A stretch of 64,000 nucleotides of DNA from Candidatus Poribacteria bacterium (lineage in GTDB: Bacteria; Poribacteria; WGA-4E; WGA-3G): assembly GCA_965205025.1 (NCBI GenBank), contig CBDBFU010000012.1, forward strand, positions 160,001 to 224,000, read 5' to 3'. The notes beneath the pieces are model-generated. The model had not been told where the DNA came from. It worked only from the letters and a program-made list of their open reading frames with translations, and searched no databases. Positions 735 through 46,500 of this stretch are shown in pieces; position 1 is the stretch's first letter; each line of letters starts with the position of its first letter. The translations under genes were made by a program, and so were the position numbers.

Positions 735-1712
735 CTACTCACTGTTTTGTTGCTTCAGCTGTCCCCACATTATTTTTTTCTTGCCTTGTGGTGTTACAGA
801 AAGCACATCATCACTTATCCAATCCGGTCCGTAATCATCTACAGCAGGCGTGTTTGTCAGGTTAACCATTTCACCTGTAAAAAGATGATACCGGTAAATG
901 TCATGCGTATCAGCGTTCGGCGGCTTGGCTGAAATCAACAGATATTTTCTGCCCATAAAACACGCACTGTGGAGTATCCAGGTGTCAGGGGTATCTACGA
1001 CTTGCCGTTTGTTTACTTTTATATCATGAATGACAACTTTTGTTGAATGACCATTCCATTCTCTATACAGAACAGACTGACTATCAGCAGACCAACGCGG
1101 AGACCTATGAGTACTTCTCCCGTTACCCTTGACAAGTACATGCTGTCCGCTACCATCGGCACGCATCAGATGGATTGTGGTACGCCCGGTAATGCTGTCT
1201 TGATACGCAATATATTTACCATCAGGGGACCAAGCCACTGATGTTGTCAATGAAACGGTGCGTGTCAGTCGCTGTAACGCTTTTGTTTCGATATTTATCC
1301 GCCAGGCATCTTTTTGAGCAGTTCCCGGTTTGGCAAGCCGGTCGCTTGTGAATACGAGGTGTTTACCATCCGGCGACCACGACGCTATCCATTCGTCATC
1401 ATCTCCCTCGGTAGCCCGAAATTCACCTGTGCCATCGCTATTGATGATAAATACGGCAGCAGAAGGCAATTGCAATGGTGCATTAGGTATAACCGGTCGT
1501 TTTCGCAAAAAAGCGATCTGCTTCCCGTCCGGAGACCAAACAGGCCACAAGACACTCCTCCGGTCTACCCTTTTGACTAATATCTTGGCATTACACCCAT
1601 CATCGTCCATCACATAAATACCTAAGCCATAGGAATCGAAAACGATCTTTGCGTGCGTGAGTGTGGGCAACAAAAATAACAAGAAACATAAGGTGAGACG
1701 TAGCAATCGCAT
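735..1712 (-). CDS. Secreted TolB-like (PD40) beta-propeller protein
   Basis: Signal peptide ending LTHA; repeated WSPDG motifs; C-terminal LSVTPQGKKKIMWGQLK. Confidence 0.85.
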   Translation of the reverse strand: MRLLRLTLCFLLFLLPTLTHAKIVFDSYGLGIYVMDDDGCNAKILVKRVDRRSVLWPVWSPDGKQIAFLRKRPVIPNAPLQLPSAAVFIINSDGTGEFRATEGDDDEWIASWSPDGKHLVFTSDRLAKPGTAQKDAWRINIETKALQRLTRTVSLTTSVAWSPDGKYIAYQDSITGRTTIHLMRADGSGQHVLVKGNGRSTHRSPRWSADSQSVLYREWNGHSTKVVIHDIKVNKRQVVDTPDTWILHSACFMGRKYLLISAKPPNADTHDIYRYHLFTGEMVNLTNTPAVDDYGPDWISDDVLSVTPQGKKKIMWGQLKQQNSE

Positions 1713-1783
1713 GAGTTCCCTCCATTTTTACGGTGTGTCGATAGGCACGGTTGTTACCCCGTGCCTATCGTTATTCTATATAA

Positions 1784-1897
1784 TACCATTTCTATTTAAA
1801 CAGTTCACATTACGAGTACTCTTAGAAGTCCCCCTGATAAGGGGGATTTAGGGGGTTTCTTCAATCAGTAATGAGCAATCATCATTTAAAAATGGTA
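1784..1897. mobile_element. MITE family A (TACCATTT...AAATGGTA) carrying a CCCCCTGATAAGGGGG palindrome
   Basis: 8-bp TIRs, about 114 bp; same termini as 20650-20762 and 53425-53667. Confidence 0.55.
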
Positions 1898-2010
1898 AGC
1901 AATATTAAATAATAATCTTGTGATTTTCGTAGGTGTTCAACCCGTAGGGGCGGGGTTTCCCCGCCCGTCATTGACGCACAATATGCATATTTAATATTGA
2001 AAATTGCTTA
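1896..2010. mobile_element. MITE-like element (TAAGCAAT...ATTGCTTA) carrying a GTAG-type REP
   Basis: Inverted termini; internal GTAGGGGCGGGGTTTCCCCGCCC hairpin at about 1945-1967. Confidence 0.5.
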
Positions 2011-2222
2011 GTTTTTAGTTATTAATTTATAGTTTTTAGTTTGTGTTCTAACCCTAATTTTATTCTTATTTTGATAAATATTATTAAGATGTATTTGTGT
2101 TTTTGTGATATATGTATGTTAGTTGCTATAGATGGATGTTTTCTTCATTTTTTATATTTGATTGGTTTCATTTACTTCTTGTTAATGCCATATACTTTAC
2201 ACCCCCTAACAATACTAAATAC

Positions 2223-2251
2223 TTGACTTTATACTCTGTAGATGCTATAAT
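2223..2251 (+). promoter_or_regulatory. Sigma70-type promoter of groL
   Basis: TTGACT-17 bp-TATAAT with extended -10 TG; GGAGG RBS before 2312. Confidence 0.75.
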
Positions 2252-2311
2252 ACAACAACCTAAATCATACATTACTTAGTACTATTTTAATATATTTGAA
2301 GGAGGTTATTT

Positions 2312-3949
2312 ATGACCGCAAAACAAATAATCTTTGATGAAGCGGCGAGGGTTGCGTTAAAACGCGGAGCAGATATTCTGGCAAATGCTGTCAAAGTAAC
2401 CCTCGGACCACGTGGAAGAAACGTGGTAATACAGAAATCTTTCGGTGCCCCAGTGGTAACCAGTGATGGAGTTTCAGTTGCTAAGGAAATTGAACTTCCA
2501 GATCCCTATGAGAATATGGGAGCACAATTACTTGAATCTATCGCAACTAAAACAAATGATGTTGCCGGAGATGGAACAACAACTGCAACAGTCTTAGGTC
2601 AAGAAATTCTTCATGAAGGTCTTAAGAATGTAACAGCAGGGGCAGACCCAATGCAGTTAAAAATCGGCATTGATAAAGCAGTAAATGCAGCATTGTCTGT
2701 AATTTCGTCACAAAGCCGAGAAGTAAATACGCATGAGGAAATATTACAGGTAGCCTCAATTGCTGCAAACGATCCAGCTAATGATAGTAATATCGGCACA
2801 ATTATCGCTGAGGCAATTGAGAAAGTTGGAAACGATGGTGCAATTACTATTGAGGAAGGTAAAACATCAGAGATTGCAGTTGATATTGTTGAAGGAATGC
2901 AATTCGACCGGGGTTTCTTGTCCCCAAACTTTGTGACTGATCAAAAAGATCAAGTTGTTGAATTCGAGAATCCCTATATTCTTATTAATACAGAAAAAAT
3001 CTCTACAGTAGCAGACCTTGTACCAATTATGGAAAAGGTAATGCAGCTTAATCGACCTTTATTGATTATAGCTGAAGATGTTGAGAGTGAAGCATTATCC
3101 ACTTTGGTTGTTAATGCACTTCGTGGTAATCTACAAGTCGCTGCTGTAAAAGCTCCTGGATTCGGAGACCGACGTAAGGAGATGTTAGAGGATATAGCCG
3201 TATTAACCGGTGGACAAGTCATATCGGAAGACACGGGTATACGTTTAGAAAATATCGTTGTAGGAATGTTAGGAACAGCAAGTAGAATTAGAATTGATAA
3301 AGATAATACAACGATTGTTGGTGGTTTCGGAGTAAAAGAGAACATTGAAGGTCGAGTTACACAGATCCGTCGACAAATTGAAGACACAACTTCTGATTAT
3401 GACCGTGAAAAACTTGAAGAACGACTTGCAAAATTAGCTGGTGGTGTAGCGGTAGTCAATGTCGGTGCTGCTACAGAAATAGAAATGAAGGAAAAAAAAG
3501 CACGATGTGAAGATGCACTATCAGCAACACGTGCCGCTATTGAAGAAGGAATTGTTGCGGGTGGTGGAATTGCTTTACTACGGTCAATTTCTGGAATAGA
3601 CGATCTGGAATTACAAGGCGACCAGGATACTGGACTTAGTATCGTTAGAGAAGCACTACGTTCGCCAGTCCGAGCAATTGCTGAAAATGCTGGATTAGAA
3701 GGTTCGGTTATCCTTTCAAACGTAGAAAGTGGTGAAGGTAATTATGGATTCAATGCAGCATCAGAGGAATATGGAGATCTGATGGAAGATGGTGTAATTG
3801 ATCCAACCAAAGTCGTCCGATCTGCGCTCCAAAATGCTTCAAGTATTGCAGGGTTATTATTGACAACGGAAACTCTAATCACAGAAATTGAGGAACCACC
3901 TGAACTCCCAGAAATGGATCCTCATGCCGGCCATGGCCATATGGACTAA
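2312..3949 (+). CDS. groL: Chaperonin GroEL (Cpn60), His-rich C-terminus, no adjacent groES
   Basis: [35 protein letters not shown] motifs; tail PHAGHGHMD. Confidence 0.98.
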
Positions 3950-10210: not shown

Positions 10211-12978
<2,768 letters not shown>

Positions 12979-13114
12979 CTTGTCAATAAAATCGGGATTT
13001 CATACCATTCACTCCAGATACTTCATTCTCATCAATTCAATCATAGTCTAACTTAACTGTGTTAGTTTCTTGTTGTTATAGTAGAATTCCTTCGTCATAA
13101 CATAACTTAAATAG

Positions 13115-13144
13115 TTGCAATATTAGGTTGAATTATGTTATAAT
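13115..13144 (+). promoter_or_regulatory. Sigma70-type promoter of xylA
   Basis: TTGCAA-18 bp-TATAAT with extended -10 TG. Confidence 0.55.
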
Positions 13145-13176
13145 TTGGCAAAGAGAATTCATTTAGGAGATAATGC

Positions 13177-14349
13177 ATGTCAGATCAGTATCTGCCCAAA
13201 CCTGAACATAAATTTACTTTCGGGTTATGGACAGTTGGAAACCCCGGCAGAGATCCTTTCGGAGATATAGTCAGACCCACCTTAAAAACCTACCTACAGC
13301 GTTCAAAAGTTAAGTGAATTAGGGGCATACGGCGTTAACTTACACGATAACGACCTTGTTCCATTTGACGCCACTCCTACAGAACGCGACAAGATTGTTA
13401 ATGAATTCAAAAAGGCACTGAGTGACCATGGAATGAAAGTTCCAATTGGCTACTACCAACTTATTTTACCATCCTATTTTCAAAGATGGTGCCTTCACTT
13501 CTAACAATCCTAAGGTAAGAGCATTTGCAATACAGAAAAACGTTAAATGCGATAGATCTTGGGGTTGAACTCGGAGCAACAGTCTATGTGTTTTGGGGTG
13601 GTCGAGAAGGTGCTGAAGTTGATGCTGCTAAAGATGGTCCCGATACTGTTAAATGGAACCGTGAGGCGATGAACTATTTTACCCATTATGTGAAAGACCA
13701 AGGGTATGATCTGAAGTTCGCATTAGAAGCAAAACCTAACGAACCTCGTGGGGATATATATTTACCTACAACTGGTCATATGCTTCATTTCATTGAAACT
13801 CTTGATCATCCAGAAATGGTAGGTGTTAACCCCGAATTTGCACATGAAACAATGGCAGGTTTGAGTTTTTTACATGGGGTGGCACAAGCCTATGAATCAG
13901 GGAAACTCTTCCACATTGACCTAAATGATCAGAAAATGAGTCGTTTCGACCAAGATCTTCGGTTCGGTTCAGAAAATATAAAAGCTGCATTCTTTCTCGT
14001 AAAATTCCTTGAGGATGTCAACTGGGATGGAAATAGACATTTCGATGCACATGCCTACCGTACAGAAGATGAACAGGGGGTATGGGACTTCGCTGCGGGT
14101 TGTATGCGGAGTTATCTGATTTTAAAAGAAAAAGCACAACGTTTTAATGAAGACACTGAAATCCAAGGGATAATCTCTGATCTACGTTCACGTGATCCTG
14201 AATTGGAATCTCTTATGGCAAACTATAGTGCTGAGAATGCTGCCAAACTCAGAAACATTGACTTCCAACCAGATAGCATTGCTCAAATAGGTCTTGGCTA
14301 CGAAAAGTTAGATCAACTTACCTTTGAGGTATTAACTGGGGTCAGGTAA
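13177..14349 (+). CDS. xylA: Xylose isomerase (short, Streptomyces/Thermus type), 2 or more apparent frameshifts
   Basis: [60 protein letters not shown]. Confidence 0.93.
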
Positions 14350-14397
14350 CTCTGTAATAGGTATCCACTATACGAAACTATAGTTGGAGTATCGCCT

Positions 14398-16305
14398 ATG
14401 AGTACACTTTTTATTGCTGTATTAAGTTTTTTCGGCTTTATTGTCGCCTATCATACCTATGGAAAGTGGCTTGCCAGAAAAATATTCGGTTTAGATCCTC
14501 AAGCAAAAGTTCCCAGCCAAGAATTAAAGGATGATGTAGATTATGTTCCTACAAAAAAGGAAATCATTTTCGGACATCATTTCACCAGTATTGCGGGAAC
14601 AGGTCCAATAGTTGGTCCGGCAATTGCTGTCTTTTGGGGATGGTTACCCGCACTCCTTTGGGTTGTAATTGGATCGGTATTTATTGGTGCTGTTCATGAT
14701 TTTGGTGCGCTCGTTGTTTCCCTCCGCAATCGAGGACAAAGTGTCGGTGAAGTAGCCGGCAGAATGATCGGTCCTCGTGCCAAGTTTCTATTTCCTCATC
14801 GTACTATTTATGGGTTTGACCATTGTTCTCGCTATCTTCGGGTTGGTCATTGCCCTCATTTTTTCATATTACCCTGAATCTGTTCTTTCTGTCTGGGTTG
14901 AGATTCCACTCGCTGTCATCATAGGGGTTTGGATCTATCGTAGGGGTGGGAAACATCCTTATTCCATCTATCATTGCTCTCGGTATAATGTATATTGCAA
15001 TGGCAGTTGGAGCATACATTCTTCCAGTTGACCTTGGTAATTGGTTCGGTATACCTCTACTCAGTCAATCTTACGTAAATGTTGTGGTGATATGGACTTT
15101 AGTACTATTTGTATATTGCTTTATTGCATCAGTATTACCTGTTTGGACACTCCTACAACCCCGAGATTTCATTAACAGTCATGAATTAGTCTTAGCATTA
15201 GTACTACTTGTACTCGGATTAGCAGTTGCAGGTTTGACAGGTAAAGCAGATTTATTCTCATCCGCACCTGCTGTAGCTTCAGACATACCTCCAGACGCCC
15301 CACCAATTTGGCCATTCCTTTTCATAACAATTGCCTGTGGTGCAGTCAGTGGATTCCACTGTATGGTTAGTTCCGGCACTTCAAGTAAACAGATTGCCTC
15401 CGAAGGAGATGCACAGTACGTGGGATACGGTGCAATGCTACTTGAGGGTGGTCTTGCAGTCGTGGTTATAATTGCTTGTTGTGCGGGTATCGGTATGGGA
15501 GTATTTAACCGTACTCCGGATCCAAATAGTGCTGCAGGATATACATTCCAACCCATCCTTAAGGAAGGGAGTACACAAGCCGTTATCCAACAAGATGCTT
15601 GGAGAACGCGGTACGCTACTACTTCTACTATTACAAAACAGGACGGAACAACAGAAGTTGTTGGTGGATGGGAAAGCCATAAACTTAGAGAGAAGGTGAG
15701 TGCATTTGTTGATGGGGGTGGGGAATTTTCTGGCATCTCTTGGGATACCTCTAAAAATGGGTATCGCAATTATGGCAGTACTTGTAGCGAGTTTCGCTGC
15801 AACAACACTTGATACCGCAACACGATTGCAACGGTATGTTATTCACGAACTGGCTCAAACTGCAAACATAAAACCATTGACAAACCGTTATATTGCCACT
15901 GGATTCGCATTACTTTTTGCTGCTGCTGTGGCATTACTTCAAGGACCGAGTGGTCCCGGGAGTGGTGGATTGACACTTTGGCCGTTATTCGGGGCAACGA
16001 ATCAGTTATTGGCAGGATTAGCATTTATGGTTATTGTCTTTTATCTGATTCGACGGAATAAACCCTTATGGTTTGCCTTCCTACCGATGGTAGTAATGCT
16101 CCTTATGCCTGCTTGGGCAATGTTATACCAAATGTTTGTCCCAGAGACCGGATGGTTAGCAAAAGGAAATTATATATTATTTGGGTTCGGTATTATAGTG
16201 GAATCATTACAAGTGTGGATGGTTATTGAGGGTATCCTCGCATGGCGTAATGCAAGAGGAAATTACCCTGAATTACCTCAGTTACAAGCGGTAATTTCAA
16301 AGTAG
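14398..16305 (+). CDS. cstA: Carbon starvation protein A family transporter, 3 apparent frameshifts
   Basis: FGHHFTSIAGTGPIVGP, GAVHDF, LLQPRD, FITIACGAVSGFH, TTLDTATRL, WPLFGATNQLLA. Confidence 0.9.
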
Positions 16306-39775: not shown

Positions 39776-41983
39776 ATGCAGGATCAACAAGGTTACCTAC
39801 AATTCTTCACCGACAACACAGTTATTATAACAGGAATAATTATTGTGCTGGTTACCGCTGTATTATGTGGGTTAGCATGGTATCGAAGCGGATTCCGTAA
39901 TAAAATTGGGTTGCTTGAACTACTTCGATTAGTTCTGGTCATACTCGTAGTTTTAACACTAAATCAACCTGAATGGTTAGAATCACAACCTCCAGAACAA
40001 CGTTCCACGCTTGCTGTCCTATGGGATAAATCCAATAGTATGCAAACACGGGATGTAATTAATGAAGAAAACGGTACATCCGAACGCAAAACACGAGCTG
40101 AAACTATTGAACCCTTGATAACTGAAGAAGCATGGCAGCTACCTGATGATTCTGAACTAAATGTCGTTTTCGAACCCTTTTCTTCTCAATTAGATCCTCC
40201 AGAAGAGGGAACAGACATAAACGCAGGTATGTCACACGTTTTAGAGACACACAGCAATCTACGTGGTGTAGTATTACTTTCCGATGGAGATAGGAATATC
40301 GGCAACTCACCAGTTGACGCAGCAACACGGTTTCACATGAAGGGAATACCTGTTTTTACAGTTGGCGTCGGTAGTAAAGTTCCTCTGCCAGATCTGGAGT
40401 TAGTCAGCATGAACGCCCCTACCTACGGTGTTACAAAAAAAGAACTTCGTATACCCTATGTGATTCGAAACACCATGGGACAGGATAGGGAGGTTACCCT
40501 TACACTATCAATTAACGATAAAAGTATAACGACTAAGGTAATCACTGTTCCAGCAATGGGACAATCACAGGATAATGTGTCTTGGACGCCACAAGAAACT
40601 GGTGAATATGATATTAAGATTACACTTGCAAAAGATGCTCAAGAATTAATCCCTGAGAATAACGAACTTTCAGCACCAATATCCATTCGTGAAGAACAGT
40701 TGAAAATACTTGTCATTGAATCCTATCCAAGATGGGAGTACAGATATCTAAGAAATGCATTAGAACGGGATGCTGGTGTTAATGTATCCTGTTTGCTCTT
40801 CCATCCAAAATTACCGCAAATGGGAGGAGGTCGTAGTTATATAGATCGTTTTCCTGACGCAAGAGAACTTAGCGAATTTGACGTGGTGTTTCTCGGAGAT
40901 GTCGGTATTGATGCTGATCAACTCACGGTTGAACAAGCACAAGATCTACGGCAACTGGTAACCGCACAAGCTGCAGGTATTGTTTTCATACCGGGACGTA
41001 CTGGTGCGCAAGAATCTCTAACGATTGGTCCTCTCGCAGATCTTTATCCTGTTGTGTTAGATCCCGCTGTGCCGAAAGGAATTGGTTCAAATATACAAGG
41101 TTATTTCGCACTCACAGAACCCGGGCAACGAAGTCTATTAACCCGTCTTAGCGATACTGATCTTACCAATAGTGAGGTATGGCAAGCATTACCCGGATTC
41201 TTTTGGTATGCAGGTATCCAACGGGCAAAAGTTGGTACAGAAATATTGGCAGTACATGATCAGGTCGCTACTGCATCAGGACGGGTTCCACTTATTGTCA
41301 CCAAAACTTACGGTACAGGTAAAGTCCTATTTATGGGTACAGACAGTGCATGGCGTTGGAGACACGGGGTTGAAGACAAATACCATTATCGCTTCTGGAG
41401 TCAAGTCGCACGATGGATGGCATACAGACGCCAAATGGCACAAGGTGAATCTATACGACTATTCTTCGCACCAGATAGACCAAGTGTAGATGATGTAGTG
41501 ACATTAAACGCAAACGTAATGGATAATGTTGGAGGTCCATTGGACAGAGGTACAGTAATTGTACAAGCAATATCACCCGCCGGTAAAACAGAGACAATAC
41601 GATTACAACCAGGCACTGATGATGCATGGGGATTATTTGTTGGAACGTTTTCACCAAAGGAAGCAGGGAATTACAAACTCATAGCAAGTAGTAGCGAGAC
41701 AGGTGCATCTGTAGAGACAGACCTATCCGTTCAAGGTCTAAATCGCGAACAACAAGGTAAGTTAGCGCGTTTTGATGTGCTTGAAGAAATTGCTAATATC
41801 ACCGATGGAAAAATGGTCACTATATCGGAAGTATCAAGTTTGTTAGATCATCTCGCAGCCTTACCAGAACCGCAACCAATTGTTCAACGGACACGAATCT
41901 GGGCACATCCGTTGTGGGGAGGATTGCTAATATTACTCCTCGGTGTCTTCTGGGTCGCACGCAAAATGGTCGGTGCAATATAG
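39776..41983 (+). CDS. Membrane protein with vWA-like and GATase-like domains
   Basis: WDKSNSM, LLSDG, PRWEYRYLRNALERD, YGTGKVLF-WRWR-FWSQ; N- and C-terminal TMs. Confidence 0.82.
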   Translation: MQDQQGYLQFFTDNTVIITGIIIVLVTAVLCGLAWYRSGFRNKIGLLELLRLVLVILVVLTLNQPEWLESQPPEQRSTLAVLWDKSNSMQTRDVINEENGTSERKTRAETIEPLITEEAWQLPDDSELNVVFEPFSSQLDPPEEGTDINAGMSHVLETHSNLRGVVLLSDGDRNIGNSPVDAATRFHMKGIPVFTVGVGSKVPLPDLELVSMNAPTYGVTKKELRIPYVIRNTMGQDREVTLTLSINDKSITTKVITVPAMGQSQDNVSWTPQETGEYDIKITLAKDAQELIPENNELSAPISIREEQLKILVIESYPRWEYRYLRNALERDAGVNVSCLLFHPKLPQMGGGRSYIDRFPDARELSEFDVVFLGDVGIDADQLTVEQAQDLRQLVTAQAAGIVFIPGRTGAQESLTIGPLADLYPVVLDPAVPKGIGSNIQGYFALTEPGQRSLLTRLSDTDLTNSEVWQALPGFFWYAGIQRAKVGTEILAVHDQVATASGRVPLIVTKTYGTGKVLFMGTDSAWRWRHGVEDKYHYRFWSQVARWMAYRRQMAQGESIRLFFAPDRPSVDDVVTLNANVMDNVGGPLDRGTVIVQAISPAGKTETIRLQPGTDDAWGLFVGTFSPKEAGNYKLIASSSETGASVETDLSVQGLNREQQGKLARFDVLEEIANITDGKMVTISEVSSLLDHLAALPEPQPIVQRTRIWAHPLWGGLLILLLGVFWVARKMVGAI

Positions 41984-42071
41984 TTGTAATTTAATACAAC
42001 ATCTATTGTACATACTGATATAATACACCAAGTCTAAGCTTATGCTAATCTGAATCTCCTTTGAGGATTCT

Positions 42072-43244
42072 ATGCAAGGATCAAATATCAGAGAACTTTT
42101 TTATATAACACATATTGATAATCTTAGTTCTATTCTGTCACTGGGAGTTTATTCTCATGAGAAAATTGAAGGTGGAGAAGTACACTCGACACCTATTTAT
42201 GATACTAATATAGTTACTCGACGTGGAGAAAAAACAACCCCAAATGGTAGAAATCTATGGTCCTATGCAAATCTTTATTTTCAACCACGTAATGCGATGA
42301 TGTACCGCGTTGTCCATGAAAAAGACTGTGCCAATTTAGCGGTTGTTGGAATTAAGACGAATATATTGACTGAAAATGGTGTATATATCACCGATGGAAA
42401 TGCTGCACATGATTCAACACAATTTTATCTTCCAAATGAAGGGATGGGTGTACTTAACAAACAATGGTCAATAATTCAAAATCAGTGGTGGAATAGAGAT
42501 GACGGATCTAAACGCAAGATTATGGCAGAATGTCTAATTCCAAGTCAGGTCAATCCTGATTATATTCAAGCCGTTTATGTTGCTAACAACTCAACGCGAG
42601 AAAAAGCTCAAAGTATATTAGGTGATTCAAACATTCCAATTAGCACACAGCCAGACATGTTTTTCCAACCTTACAGTCGTACAAAAATTGGTGCAAATAT
42701 TTCCTTAATTGATGGAGATATGTTCTTTTCAAATCTTCAGACACTAACTATTAGCGTTAATCTACAAGGTATTATGGGAAAAGGATTAGCTTCACGCGCG
42801 AAGTATCAATTTCCGGATGTCTATGTTGCCTACCAAGATGCTTGTCGATCAAAAAGAATCACTGCAACAAGACCATTTCTATACAAACGTGAAAGTTCAT
42901 TGGATGATGAATTGGCTGATCTGGAAACACCACTTGTTACATCTAATGCTGTAAAGTGGTTTCTCCTATTTGCAACAAAACGCCGTTGGAGGGACAACTC
43001 ACGGATGGATGATGTTGAAGGGGGGCTTAAATGGGTTCGAGACAATTATCAAAAACAAGGAATTAAATCTCTTGCTTTGCCGGCACTCGGTTGTGGATTA
43101 GGTGGTTTGGATTGGAAGACAGTTGGACCACTGATGTGTAAATTTCTACATGGAATTGATATCTTGGTTGCCATCTATTTGCCCCAAGAATCTAAAATTG
43201 AGGATCAATATAAAACAGAATCACATCTTCTATCATCTAAATAG
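42072..43244 (+). CDS. DarT-like DNA ADP-ribosyltransferase fused to a DarG-like macrodomain
   Basis: N-terminal YITHIDNL-IL, YANLYFQPRNAMMY, TDGNAA, MAECL; C-terminal GDMF, VNLQGIMGKGLA, FATKRRW, ALPALGCGLGGLDW. Confidence 0.88.
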   Translation: MQGSNIRELFYITHIDNLSSILSLGVYSHEKIEGGEVHSTPIYDTNIVTRRGEKTTPNGRNLWSYANLYFQPRNAMMYRVVHEKDCANLAVVGIKTNILTENGVYITDGNAAHDSTQFYLPNEGMGVLNKQWSIIQNQWWNRDDGSKRKIMAECLIPSQVNPDYIQAVYVANNSTREKAQSILGDSNIPISTQPDMFFQPYSRTKIGANISLIDGDMFFSNLQTLTISVNLQGIMGKGLASRAKYQFPDVYVAYQDACRSKRITATRPFLYKRESSLDDELADLETPLVTSNAVKWFLLFATKRRWRDNSRMDDVEGGLKWVRDNYQKQGIKSLALPALGCGLGGLDWKTVGPLMCKFLHGIDILVAIYLPQESKIEDQYKTESHLLSSK

Positions 43245-43522
43245 TCAGTATTGTGAATTTTTATAAATTCGAAAAAGTGTCTATAAACCCAGTCTGTGAC
43301 AGGTGGAATCGGGTAATATGTAGTGTCACACCGTGTGACAAAAAGTGTAACATTTTACGCTTTTGTGTGAATTATAAAATATGAACAACATTCAAACAAC
43401 TTACAGACTGTTAGAACGACCTATTCATTGAAATCCAGAACGAATTAAAGGTATAATCTATAAACAACTGATAACTTTAAACTTACTGCTAATCACTAAC
43501 AGGTATAATACCGGAGGTGTTT

Positions 43523-46500
43523 ATGAACCAAACACATTCAAAAGAAAACAATATCAACCTACCTCCACGAATGAAATCTGCCCTTAACCAATACAAGAAA
43601 AGGGTATGGATAATTAAACTCGCAGAGGGAACTTTAGCTGCTCTCTTCGGGCTCATCATATCATATCTCGTTGTTTTTGGATTAGATCGACTCTTTGATA
43701 CACATGCACTCCTACGCGGACTCATCCTGATTGTTGGGATGATTGGAATGGTTGTATTTTTACCATTAAAATATTACAACTGGGTTTGGAAAAACCGCCA
43801 TCTTGAAGGTATCGCACGATTATTGCAGCGAAAATATCCACGATTTGGTGACCATGTACTGGGTATCATTGAACTCGCATCAAATAGATCAGATAAATAC
43901 TCCAGTCCCGCATTAATATCTGCTGCTATGCAGCAGGTTGACGAAGAGGTTGCAAAACATAATCTGGCAGAGGCTGTTCCAATGCCACGCCACAGACGAT
44001 GGGCATTAGCCGTAGGTATCCCATTAATAATCATCATTATCGGTATACTAATTATTCCTGCACCAAGTCGCAATGCTTTAGCGCGATGGTTAACACCATG
44101 GCGAAAGGTCGAACGTTATACTTTCGCACAATTGGATGGAGAGACAAACAAACGTGTTGTTGCCTATGCGGAACCTTTCAATGTGAATGCACAGTTAAAA
44201 GAGAACTCACCTTGGAAACCTGAATCAGGACAAGCACAATATGCAGACCAAAATCCTGTAGTTGCAGAGCGGGACGAGTCAAGCTATAAGTTTGAATTAC
44301 CACCACAGACAGAAGATGGAAAACTAAATCTCCGCATAGGGGATGCAAGACGTGCCATACCTATCGAACCTAAATTACGTCCAGCCCTAAAAGAATTGAT
44401 TGCTAAAGTACAACTTCCTGAATACTTACAACGTCCTGAACCAGAAACAGTTGATATTCGTGGGGGAATAATTAACATCGTAAAAGGCAGTAGTGCAACC
44501 TTAGAAGCAACAATTACACGTGAACTATCCGAAGCAACATTAAATAATCGTCCGCAAAAGGTTGATGGAACACGCATAATTACTGAACCAATATCCAATG
44601 ATACCACTACTGAAATACAACTTGCATGGAAAGATAATTATGGACTTACAGCATCAGCGCCTCAAATACTTCAATTTGAGGTTAAAGAAGATGATACACC
44701 ATCAGTTACATTAGGTAAACTTAAGAATAATCAAGTTGTTCTTTCTACTGAAGTACTCACATTTGAAATTCAAGCTGATGATGACTACGGTGTAAAAAAG
44801 GTCGGTTTGGAATGGAAAGGTATTGAGAGTCCAATCCAAAATCCTGAACCTGACGAAGGAGAGAAAACCGTTTCGGCGGGTTCACCTACATCAGAATCTC
44901 TAATCGTTCCTGCCACCTTTTCTATTGAGCGAGAAAAAATACGTCCTCAAAGTTTTCGTCTAAGAGCGTATGCTGAAGACTATTTTCCAAATAGAGAACG
45001 AACATATTCTCCACAGATTGTACTCCACGTTCTCGGTCCGACAGAGCATTTTAAATGGGTCATCGGTCAGATGCAACTCTGGGCAAGTGCTGCAAAAGAT
45101 GTACACGATAGAGAATTACAACTACATCAAAAAAATCTTGAATTACGTGACATGACACCTCAGCAATTGGATACACCAGCACAACGTAAAGTTTTGCAAA
45201 ATCAGGCAGCCGCAGAACGAACAAATGCTGCAAAACTTGATAGTCTAATAGGCTCCGGTGTTGAACTTCTTCAAGAAGCTACAAAAAATGATGAATTTGA
45301 TCCCGATCAACTCAACTCATGGGCAGAAATGCTCAATAAATTAGAAGAAATCGCTGGTAAGAAAATGCCTTCTGTCGCTGACTTACTCGCACAAGCAGCT
45401 CAAGCACCCGGACAACAGGGCAATCAGAATCCTTCTGAAAGTAGTCAACAAGATCCATCTCAAAATACATCGGCTCAAAACGGTCAGCAATCTCAGGGGA
45501 CTAATAATTCAGAATCACCATCGGATAATGCTATCGCTGATACAAAAAAGTATGGTCCTGATGATATTTTTTCTGCTGAAGATGCTGAAGAATCAGAGGA
45601 GACAGATGATCCTAACAAACCCGGAAATGTTGCCGGTGTAGACCGAAGCAAACCTGCTGCCGGGGAGAGTCCAGGAACTGCACCCCCTAATAATCCTGCT
45701 CCTACTGTGGGAGATGTTGAATCTGGGTTTAATAAACCTGAAAAACCTAATGATGCACCCCCAGGACAAATGGTCGGCGGGTTGGGACTTGCTACCACTA
45801 CTCTCAAAGGAAGCGGTAGAGAAGAACAAGAAAACGAACAAGATGAACAAGATCCATCAGCATCTGATTTTGTTATTCAAGCTGTTGAAATTCAAAAAGA
45901 ATTGTTGGATGCTTTTTCTGAAGTATCTGATGAGATTAAAAGACTGCTCGCGGGATTAGAGAATAGTACATTTGTAAAAAGATTGAAAGCTGCTTCAAGA
46001 AAACAGATTGATGTCGCAGTTGACCTAAACAAAATGGATGCCTTCGGTCTTGCAAATAGAGCATCAAACAATCAGGAACAACGTAAACGAATTGCATATA
46101 TAGAGGATACCGAAGCAAAGACTGTGAATACTATTATACAAGATATGGCAGCCTATGTTGATCGAAGACCAAATGAAGCTTATTTGCGTGTACTCAAAGA
46201 AATGGAAGATGCTACCGTCGCTACTGAAATGAAGGCTATTATTACTGCAATCAATAGAAATATGGTCGGTGTTTCTACAATTGAAGCTGAATATTGGGCG
46301 GATACATTCGACAGATGGGCTGAACAACTCGTCGGACCGATGCCACCCCCATCAGGTGAAGGAGGTTATATGGAATTACCTAACTTACCTCCAGAAATTA
46401 TACTAAGGGTATTGCGCGTCATTGACCGTGAAATGCAATTGCGAGAAGAAACACGCGAAGTTGAACAAGCAAGAAATGCACTTACAGAGGATGAATATTA

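Follow-up and report, generated by a model that had tools for sequence, protein, structure and literature searches.

DarTG systems combine two enzyme families, the DarT ADP-ribosyltransferases and the DarG-type macrodomains, and reportedly have an anti-phage role, as LeRoux set out in 2022. According to PMC5179494, replication is blocked when DarT ADP-ribosylates thymidine in single-stranded DNA (ssDNA), the DarG macrodomain undoes this modification, and the macrodomain of Thermus aquaticus (Taq) DarG rescues DarT toxicity without the C-terminal domain. A single-chain form is represented in the Protein Data Bank (PDB) by entry 7OMU, which was released on 2021-06-23 under the title "Thermosipho africanus DarTG in complex with ADP-ribose". 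The publication behind this entry is presumably Schuller et al. 2021 (Nature 596:597). The literature searched contained no functional account of the fused form; the paper of the 7OMU depositors, which lay outside that search, may well describe its activity. In six papers whose passages were searched for a fusion (PMC9411070, PMC11125620, PMC11543638, PMC8883491, PMC5179494, and PMC8053099), a DarT fusion was not mentioned, and the one paper that uses the wording "DarT-Macro" does so for a gene pair only and not for a fused chain. Here, a gene of the fused form is described from a 64,000-nucleotide (nt) stretch of DNA from a Candidatus Poribacteria bacterium (the window; contig CBDBFU010000012.1 of assembly GCA_965205025.1, positions 160,001 to 224,000). 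The gene is a further member of a naturally fused DarTG family that is widespread and has already been crystallised, and its architecture is not new. The original prediction for this locus, which was made from the sequence alone, had presented the fused architecture as novel, but the same layout has been solved in 7OMU and was found in hundreds of genomes.

The gene consists of one open reading frame (ORF) that encodes 390 amino acids (aa), with an ATG start and no internal stop (Table 1). Its end agreed with the original prediction, whereas its start had been placed at 42016, where a proposed -10 box begins, instead of at 42072. The Pfam DarT profile (PF14487) matched residues 10-198 over its whole length (profile positions 1-201 of 201, E = 2.8e-46, 158.2 bits for a cut-off of 22.5), and the PADLOC DarT profile matched residues 7-198 (E = 1.5e-40). 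The second half of the protein matched the PADLOC DarG profile (residues 210-385 to profile positions 2-159 of 329, E = 2.4e-43), and the Pfam Macro profile gave a partial match to residues 302-352 (E = 3.5e-6). Two DarG macrodomain chains, 5M31 (E = 1.2e-19) and 5M3I (E = 4.5e-17), aligned from residue 207 onward, and the macrodomain was matched by Foldseek to 5M3E with a template modelling (TM) score on target of 0.84. The chain ends at residue 390, 5 residues past the macrodomain; therefore, the C-terminal domain of DarG is absent. The translation contained the motifs MAECL (with E153), TDGNAA, YFQPRN, GDMF, MGKG, ATKRRW (with K303), and GCGLGG. These results bear out the prediction of a single polypeptide in which DarT is joined to a macrodomain of the DarG type and the C-terminal domain of DarG is lacking, including all of its named motifs with the catalytic Glu (E153) and Lys (K303) and a linker that is not interrupted by a stop.

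Residues 6-387 were colinear with residues 23-404 of the 406-residue chain of 7OMU (E = 6.5e-126), which was also the top match in Foldseek (E = 1.3e-40), with 48% identity in the structural alignment. A scan with two patterns, in which each species was represented by one genome, identified an encoded relative in 256 genomes that belonged to several phyla. The titles of the 80 loci that were kept named Poribacteria, Nostocales and other cyanobacteria, Planctomycetota, Acidobacteriota, Caldilineaceae, and Calditrichaceae, and identity across phyla was unusually high (58-67%). When 1.84 billion cluster representatives were searched, 93 clusters matched at E up to 1e-30; among the cluster matches listed, some 25 proteins of ~385-420 aa were matched in both halves at identities of 38-55%. 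Some members are named by NCBI as "DarT ssDNA thymidine ADP-ribosyltransferase family protein" or "DUF4433 domain-containing protein".

The fusion is real and is not an artefact of assembly. Contigs from two sequencing runs were identical to the window over 41900-43400, and these are possibly the source of the window itself. A 17,379-nt contig from another study spanned 41900-43231 with 65 substitutions and 0 gaps. Two minor variants were found in run X3, each in one contig. One of these contigs (depth 6.5 of 33) has a 1-nt deletion and a 1-nt insertion that compensate each other at 42175/42180, and the other (depth 3.4) skips 106 nt at 43099-43206. The best 120 of 2476 homolog matches were colinear proteins of 312-404 aa. 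At least 98% of the query was covered in 119 of these 120, at identities of 63-94%, and 110 of the 120 carried both Pfam annotations. Within the genus, 16 of 24 genomes contained a full-length open copy without an internal stop, with identities of 68-90%. The predicted junction is thus confirmed both by the contig of the second study, which shows no indel, and by the near full length of almost all of the best homologs.

Conservation was counted across 25 aligned sequences, namely the window protein and 24 homologs. E153 aligned with Ala in 7OMU, 7OMV (Thermus DarT), 7YK3 (M. tuberculosis DarT), and 8BAQ (E. coli C7 DarT1), and these Ala residues presumably are engineered Glu-to-Ala mutations. 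The counterpart of E153 in Taq DarT is the conserved E160, and the E160A mutant is non-toxic (Jankevicius, 2016, PMC5179494); the residue was kept in 24 of the 25 family members. In the DarT half, R51, H14, D108, and G109 were each found in 25/25. K303, N230, K237, and G342 of the macrodomain aligned with K80, N22, K29, and G119 of Taq DarG, and all four were invariant as well; K303 stood opposite the K that follows the T in the TKKHW motif of 5M31. Mutations of these four Taq residues showed the most marked loss of hydrolysis (PMC5179494). The junction region (P194, F197, F198, Q199, and P200), together with I210, was also invariant (25/25); therefore, the junction looks like a fixed structural connection and not a floppy linker. 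Mean identity to the 24 homologs was 80% for the macrodomain half and 63% for the DarT half. Both halves appear to be under purifying selection, and the catalytic domains are apparently intact.

An altered specificity had also been proposed because of two His changes, but this proposal was not upheld. At position 10, 20 of the 25 sequences had Y and 5 had F, so the F10 of the window protein falls within a family-wide choice of Y or F. Position 305 was variable (K in 12, H in 8, N in 2, Q in 2, and R in 1), and its counterpart in Taq DarG is H82, at which the H82A mutation changed activity little or not at all (Jankevicius, 2016, PMC5179494).

The window protein is very probably a fused DarTG of the T. 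africanus type that works as a self-neutralising module for reversible ADP-ribosylation of ssDNA, for which we infer the enzyme activities, the substrate, the trigger, and any role in defence. The DarT domain would transfer ADP-ribose from NAD+ to a base of ssDNA, most probably thymidine, as in the DarT enzymes that are paired with a macrodomain. The DarG/TARG1-type eraser and R51 suggest, without establishing it, that thymidine may be the modified base; R51 aligned with an Arg of Thermus DarT (7OMV) that we assume to be catalytic. The macrodomain would strip the ADP-ribose mark by means of its catalytic lysine. Writer and eraser would be made 1:1 in cis; the covalent link would therefore stand in for the DarT-binding C-terminal domain of two-gene DarG, and the protein would be self-neutralising at rest. 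Net modification of DNA would be expected only when this balance tips through inhibition of the macrodomain, an excess of ssDNA substrate, or a conformational trigger, and it would lead to stalled replication and growth arrest or to the block of an invading genome. At this locus, the idea that cleavage or a phage inhibitor of the macrodomain would release the DarT half is pure conjecture. A precedent is known for a fused toxin-antitoxin that is freed when a phage protein disables the neutralising part (PMC11481870).

Several observations weigh against this reading. Both halves scored below the equivalog cut-offs of NCBIfam: toxin_DarT (NF048013) matched along its full length (positions 1-204 of 204) with 99.7 bits for a cut-off of 150, and antitoxin_DarG (NF048014) matched at positions 1-160 of 338 only, with 135.4 bits for a cut-off of 250. 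The DarT half is distant from the characterised DarTs, from DarT1 and DarT2 structures alike (7OMV, E = 9.2e-5; 7YK3, E = 3.7e-3; 8BAQ, E = 6.3e-3), and due to this remoteness base specificity is not readable from the sequence. In P0015, a homolog that is 75% identical and otherwise intact, the catalytic Glu is replaced by Ala (MAACL and not MAECL), which indicates that the family can in places do without transferase activity. The AlphaFold model was mediocre, with a mean predicted local distance difference test (pLDDT) score of 70.7 and a predicted TM score (pTM) of 0.59, and it does not establish how the domains pack or add to what is known from the solved homolog. Its superposition on 7OMU reached a TM of only 0.55 at a root-mean-square deviation of 8.1 Å, because the model is mediocre. 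Among the 14 neighbouring genes that were scanned, there was no credible match to a defence family; the only two PADLOC matches were doubtful, one linking a WD40-repeat protein to HEAT-ARM_XIII and the other being Cas6_IIIa at E = 4.8e-4. The wider survey covered 72 immediate neighbours at 37 of the 80 fetched loci and left out near kin of the window locus in which the flanking genes are the same, near-duplicate Nostoc loci, and one locus without a called gene. Restriction-modification or helicase-type neighbours were present at 4 of these 37 loci, and the remainder were mostly ordinary metabolic genes.

The search for a defence-island context gave a negative answer at the window locus itself, where the fused gene is surrounded by a MoxR-DUF58-BatA cluster and other genes (Table 1), with a sulfatase gene also among its neighbours. 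No second DarT or DarG-like macrodomain was found besides the fused gene in the 5.66-Mb, 95%-complete assembly. The GC content of the gene is ~0.35-0.38, compared with 0.41-0.45 in its flanks. In the loci of nine relatives, both flanking genes were the same in six, one flank was the same in two, and neither in one. Protein identity within the genus was ~75% for the fusion, and 84% and 74-77% for the flanking proteins. Two genus members, G012 and G023, contained an empty site in which the same flanking genes are adjacent (84 and 276 base pairs (bp) apart, respectively), and a relic of residues 1-71 lay between the same flanks in G014. In a third genus member without the gene, the upstream flank was not found near the downstream flank. 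In the other three families of the order, the gene was present in 1 of the 16 genomes searched. The fused gene is a solo accessory gene that was inserted between two cluster genes, has been passed on at this site within the genus, and was lost from some of its members.

Table 1. The fused gene, its domains, and neighbouring features, in positions of the window.
Feature	Position	Strand	Basis or remark
MoxR-type AAA_3 ATPase	35353	same strand as fused gene	MoxR-DUF58-BatA cluster
DUF58 protein	36541	same strand as fused gene	MoxR-DUF58-BatA cluster
BatA-N protein	37613	same strand as fused gene	MoxR-DUF58-BatA cluster
CARDB protein, 735 aa	39776-41983	same strand as fused gene	directly before fused gene
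TGATATAAT, candidate extended -10 box	42016-42024	+	pattern match only
GAGGA, likely ribosome-binding site, 6-10 nt before ATG	42062-42066	+	sequence
Fused DarT-macrodomain protein (single-chain DarTG)	42072-43244	+	ORF; 7OMU alignment; homologs; contig of second study without indel
DarT (DUF4433) ADP-ribosyltransferase domain, residues 10-198	42099-42665	+	PF14487 profile; FYITH at N-terminus, R51, TDGNAA, E153 in MAECL
Junction, about residues 199-206 (QPYSRTKI), short, conserved, without stop	42666-42689	+	end of DarT profile to first macrodomain strand
DarG/TARG1-type macrodomain, residues ~207-385	42690-43226	+	PADLOC DarG, PDB chains; K303 in ATKRRW
1144-aa protein, GTG start, no Pfam match	43517	same strand as fused gene	directly after fused gene
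Glycoside-hydrolase-like gene	after 1144-aa gene	same strand as fused gene	neighbour scan

The original prediction had also given the gene its own extended -10 box. The sequence TGATATAAT is indeed present at the proposed position, but promoter support for it was not obtained. A promoter scan of 41700-43700 listed 10 promoter-like sites, a count that does not exceed that in shuffled sequences (7.3 +/- 3.2), and 42016-42024 was not one of them. Among eight aligned relatives, the box was kept only in the two closest, exactly in one and with one mismatch in the other, and was unrecognisable in six. The candidate box is plausible but unsupported. At the ribosome-binding site, a GAGG-like box occupied the same place in six of the eight aligned relatives, and the other two had GAGA or GGAA. 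Met196 and Met217 were considered as internal starts for a separate macrodomain, but a well-spaced Shine-Dalgarno box was found at neither, and the idea was set aside. No terminator-like site was found in 41700-43700, and a comparison of 41900-43600 with Rfam gave no match up to E = 1. The strongest of the promoter-like sites here (TTGAAA-18-TATAAT, 11/12) was located at 43428-43457, which is 60 nt before the GTG of the 1144-aa gene; therefore, this downstream gene may have its own promoter.

The intergenic region also contained, at 43323-43357 and 79 nt past the stop of the fused gene, the core of a dispersed repeat with 8-bp inverted arms (TGTCACAC and GTGTGACA) that are followed by AAAAAGTGTAAC. 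The genome harbored 105 copies of this core (54 forward and 51 reverse, with at most 3 mismatches), compared with 0 for a reversed-pattern control. Contig depth at the repeat rose from ~20-47 up to 1700-3600 in all four runs. About 100-150 bp around the core were common to six other copies. The repeat in the window had no Rfam match. The repeat could be an element resembling a repetitive extragenic palindrome (REP) or a miniature inverted-repeat transposable element (MITE), or the binding site of a regulator.

Among the 72 surveyed neighbours of the 37 loci, there was no DarT or Macro match and no family that recurred across phyla. A HhH-GPD (base-excision) gene was located directly downstream of the fused gene at 2 of the 37 loci. 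In Nostocales, a Ser/Thr protein kinase gene preceded the fused gene on the same strand at the two loci that were covered by the Pfam scan (L038 and L042), and an upstream ORF of kinase size was present at four others (L041, L047, L049, and L057). These upstream ORFs encode 377-396 aa and end a few bases from the start codon of the fused gene or overlap it by 4 bases, which suggests that kinase and fused gene are co-transcribed.

Some genomes of the same genus contained a second, divergent fused DarT-macrodomain gene directly after a stand-alone DarT-only ORF of 210-228 aa (L093 in G006, L094 and L095 in G011, and L096 in G010). These divergent fused paralogs are 50-60% identical to the window protein, and the catalytic Glu motif is kept in both the stand-alone DarT and the fused gene. 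At a further locus (L097 in G015), the divergent fused gene had only a short DarT relic upstream. To our knowledge, a three-domain module of this kind, "DarT plus DarT-macro", has no earlier description.

Three other explanations of the fused gene were weighed. An unlikely one is that it encodes a domesticated chromosomal regulator that places a reversible mark on host DNA, for example in replication or dormancy, and is not a mobile toxin-antitoxin or anti-phage module. The fixed syntenic site within the genus, a divergence of the fusion that resembles that of its neighbours, and the strand shared with the MoxR-DUF58-BatA cluster are consistent with such a role, as are the unusually high cross-phylum identity, the mostly housekeeping neighbours elsewhere, and the overlapping upstream Ser/Thr kinase gene that is kept in Nostocales. 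However, the gene is dispensable, with an empty site in two genus members and a relic in one, and its GC content lies below that of its surroundings. In addition, its rarity in the other three families of the order together with its presence in scattered phyla speaks for horizontal transfer of the kind that accessory or defence genes undergo. A more specific version of this idea, in which a long-resident chromosomal gene that lies within the cluster and is passed on with it, and not a mobile defence cassette, would place transient ADP-ribose on the bacterium's own ssDNA and thereby gate replication or dormancy, is slightly less probable again. If it were true, the high conservation across phyla, the housekeeping neighbourhoods, and the kinase-coupled form of Nostocales would reflect regulatory DNA marking.

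It is very unlikely that the protein is primarily an eraser, with a DarT half that functions as a module for targeting ssDNA or substrate or as a weak enzyme. The protein would then serve as an orphan antitoxin or in repair, directed at DarT toxins or at ADP-ribosyltransferases of phages that are made elsewhere. The macrodomain half is indeed the more conserved of the two, and P0015 is a natural homolog with Ala at the catalytic Glu. In the four modules of three same-genus genomes, in which a stand-alone DarT is followed by a divergent fused gene, the latter is a possible antitoxin, and the HhH-GPD genes directly downstream at two loci would also suit a repair function. On the other hand, the retention of E153 in all but one member and the invariance of R51, H14, D108, and G109 are hard to explain for a dead domain. 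Furthermore, a search of this genome found no further DarT, and the fused paralogs beside stand-alone DarT genes keep the Glu motif too.

The frameshift-rich block that the original prediction noted elsewhere in the window would favour an assembly or sequencing artefact that joined an adjacent darT and a macro-only darG. Such an artefact is hardly conceivable, since the second-study contig shows no indel across the gene, the full-length matches in the genomes of 17 relatives are all open frames without an internal stop, the best 120 homologs are colinear, and a full-length homolog has been crystallised (7OMU). Short ORFs of 159-288 aa on the same strand, some of which overlap, were observed at 12265-16305, and these may be the frameshift-rich block.

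As a fused DarTG, the gene adds a member, and not a principle, to a DarT-macrodomain form that has already been solved by crystallography and of which hundreds of relatives have been sequenced. The fused form raises the questions of its role in cells and of how the toxin half escapes an eraser that is covalently attached to it. Leads are offered by its stable inheritance at a single site in sponge-associated bacteria, by its usual position alone among ordinary genes, and by the pairs of stand-alone DarT and fused DarT-macro genes in some relatives.

The window protein can be compared with several known systems. The human terminal ADP-ribose glycohydrolase TARG1 (C6orf130) shares its macrodomain subtype and catalytic Lys, and was matched both by sequence (4J5R, E = 1.7e-6; 2EEE, ~2e-6) and by Foldseek (TM-scores on target of 0.73-0.79). 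Unlike the window protein, TARG1 is a eukaryotic stand-alone macrodomain without a transferase half. The phage-triggered fused toxin-antitoxin mentioned above, which we take to be of the CapRel type, also carries a toxin and a neutralising domain in one chain; its folds and chemistry are unrelated, and there is no sign of such a trigger here. PARP14 reportedly unites an ADP-ribosyl transferase with a macrodomain that acts as a hydrolase, both in the same chain. This combination, again as here, occurs in the single chain of SirTM with a Zn-macrodomain (PMC11490716). Both of these differ from the window protein in that they act on protein substrates and belong to a different transferase family.

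The two-gene DarTG systems of Thermus aquaticus, M. tuberculosis, and enteropathogenic E. coli (EPEC), as well as DarTG2, contain the same two enzyme families with the DarT Glu and the macrodomain Lys. The window locus differs from them in having one gene that lacks the DarT-binding C-terminal domain, in missing the equivalog cut-offs, and in its remote DarT half. The C-terminal domain of DarG is said, in a title by Deep and colleagues from 2023, to act by ssDNA mimicry. Compared with T. africanus DarTG (7OMU), the window protein belongs to another phylum, is 48% identical, and has E153 where the crystallised chain has Ala. It shares with T. africanus DarTG the one-chain order of DarT, a short conserved junction, and a DarG-type macrodomain without the C-terminal domain. 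In its chain length, which is ~390-406 aa for this type, and in its colinear domains, the window protein belongs to the T. africanus DarTG type.

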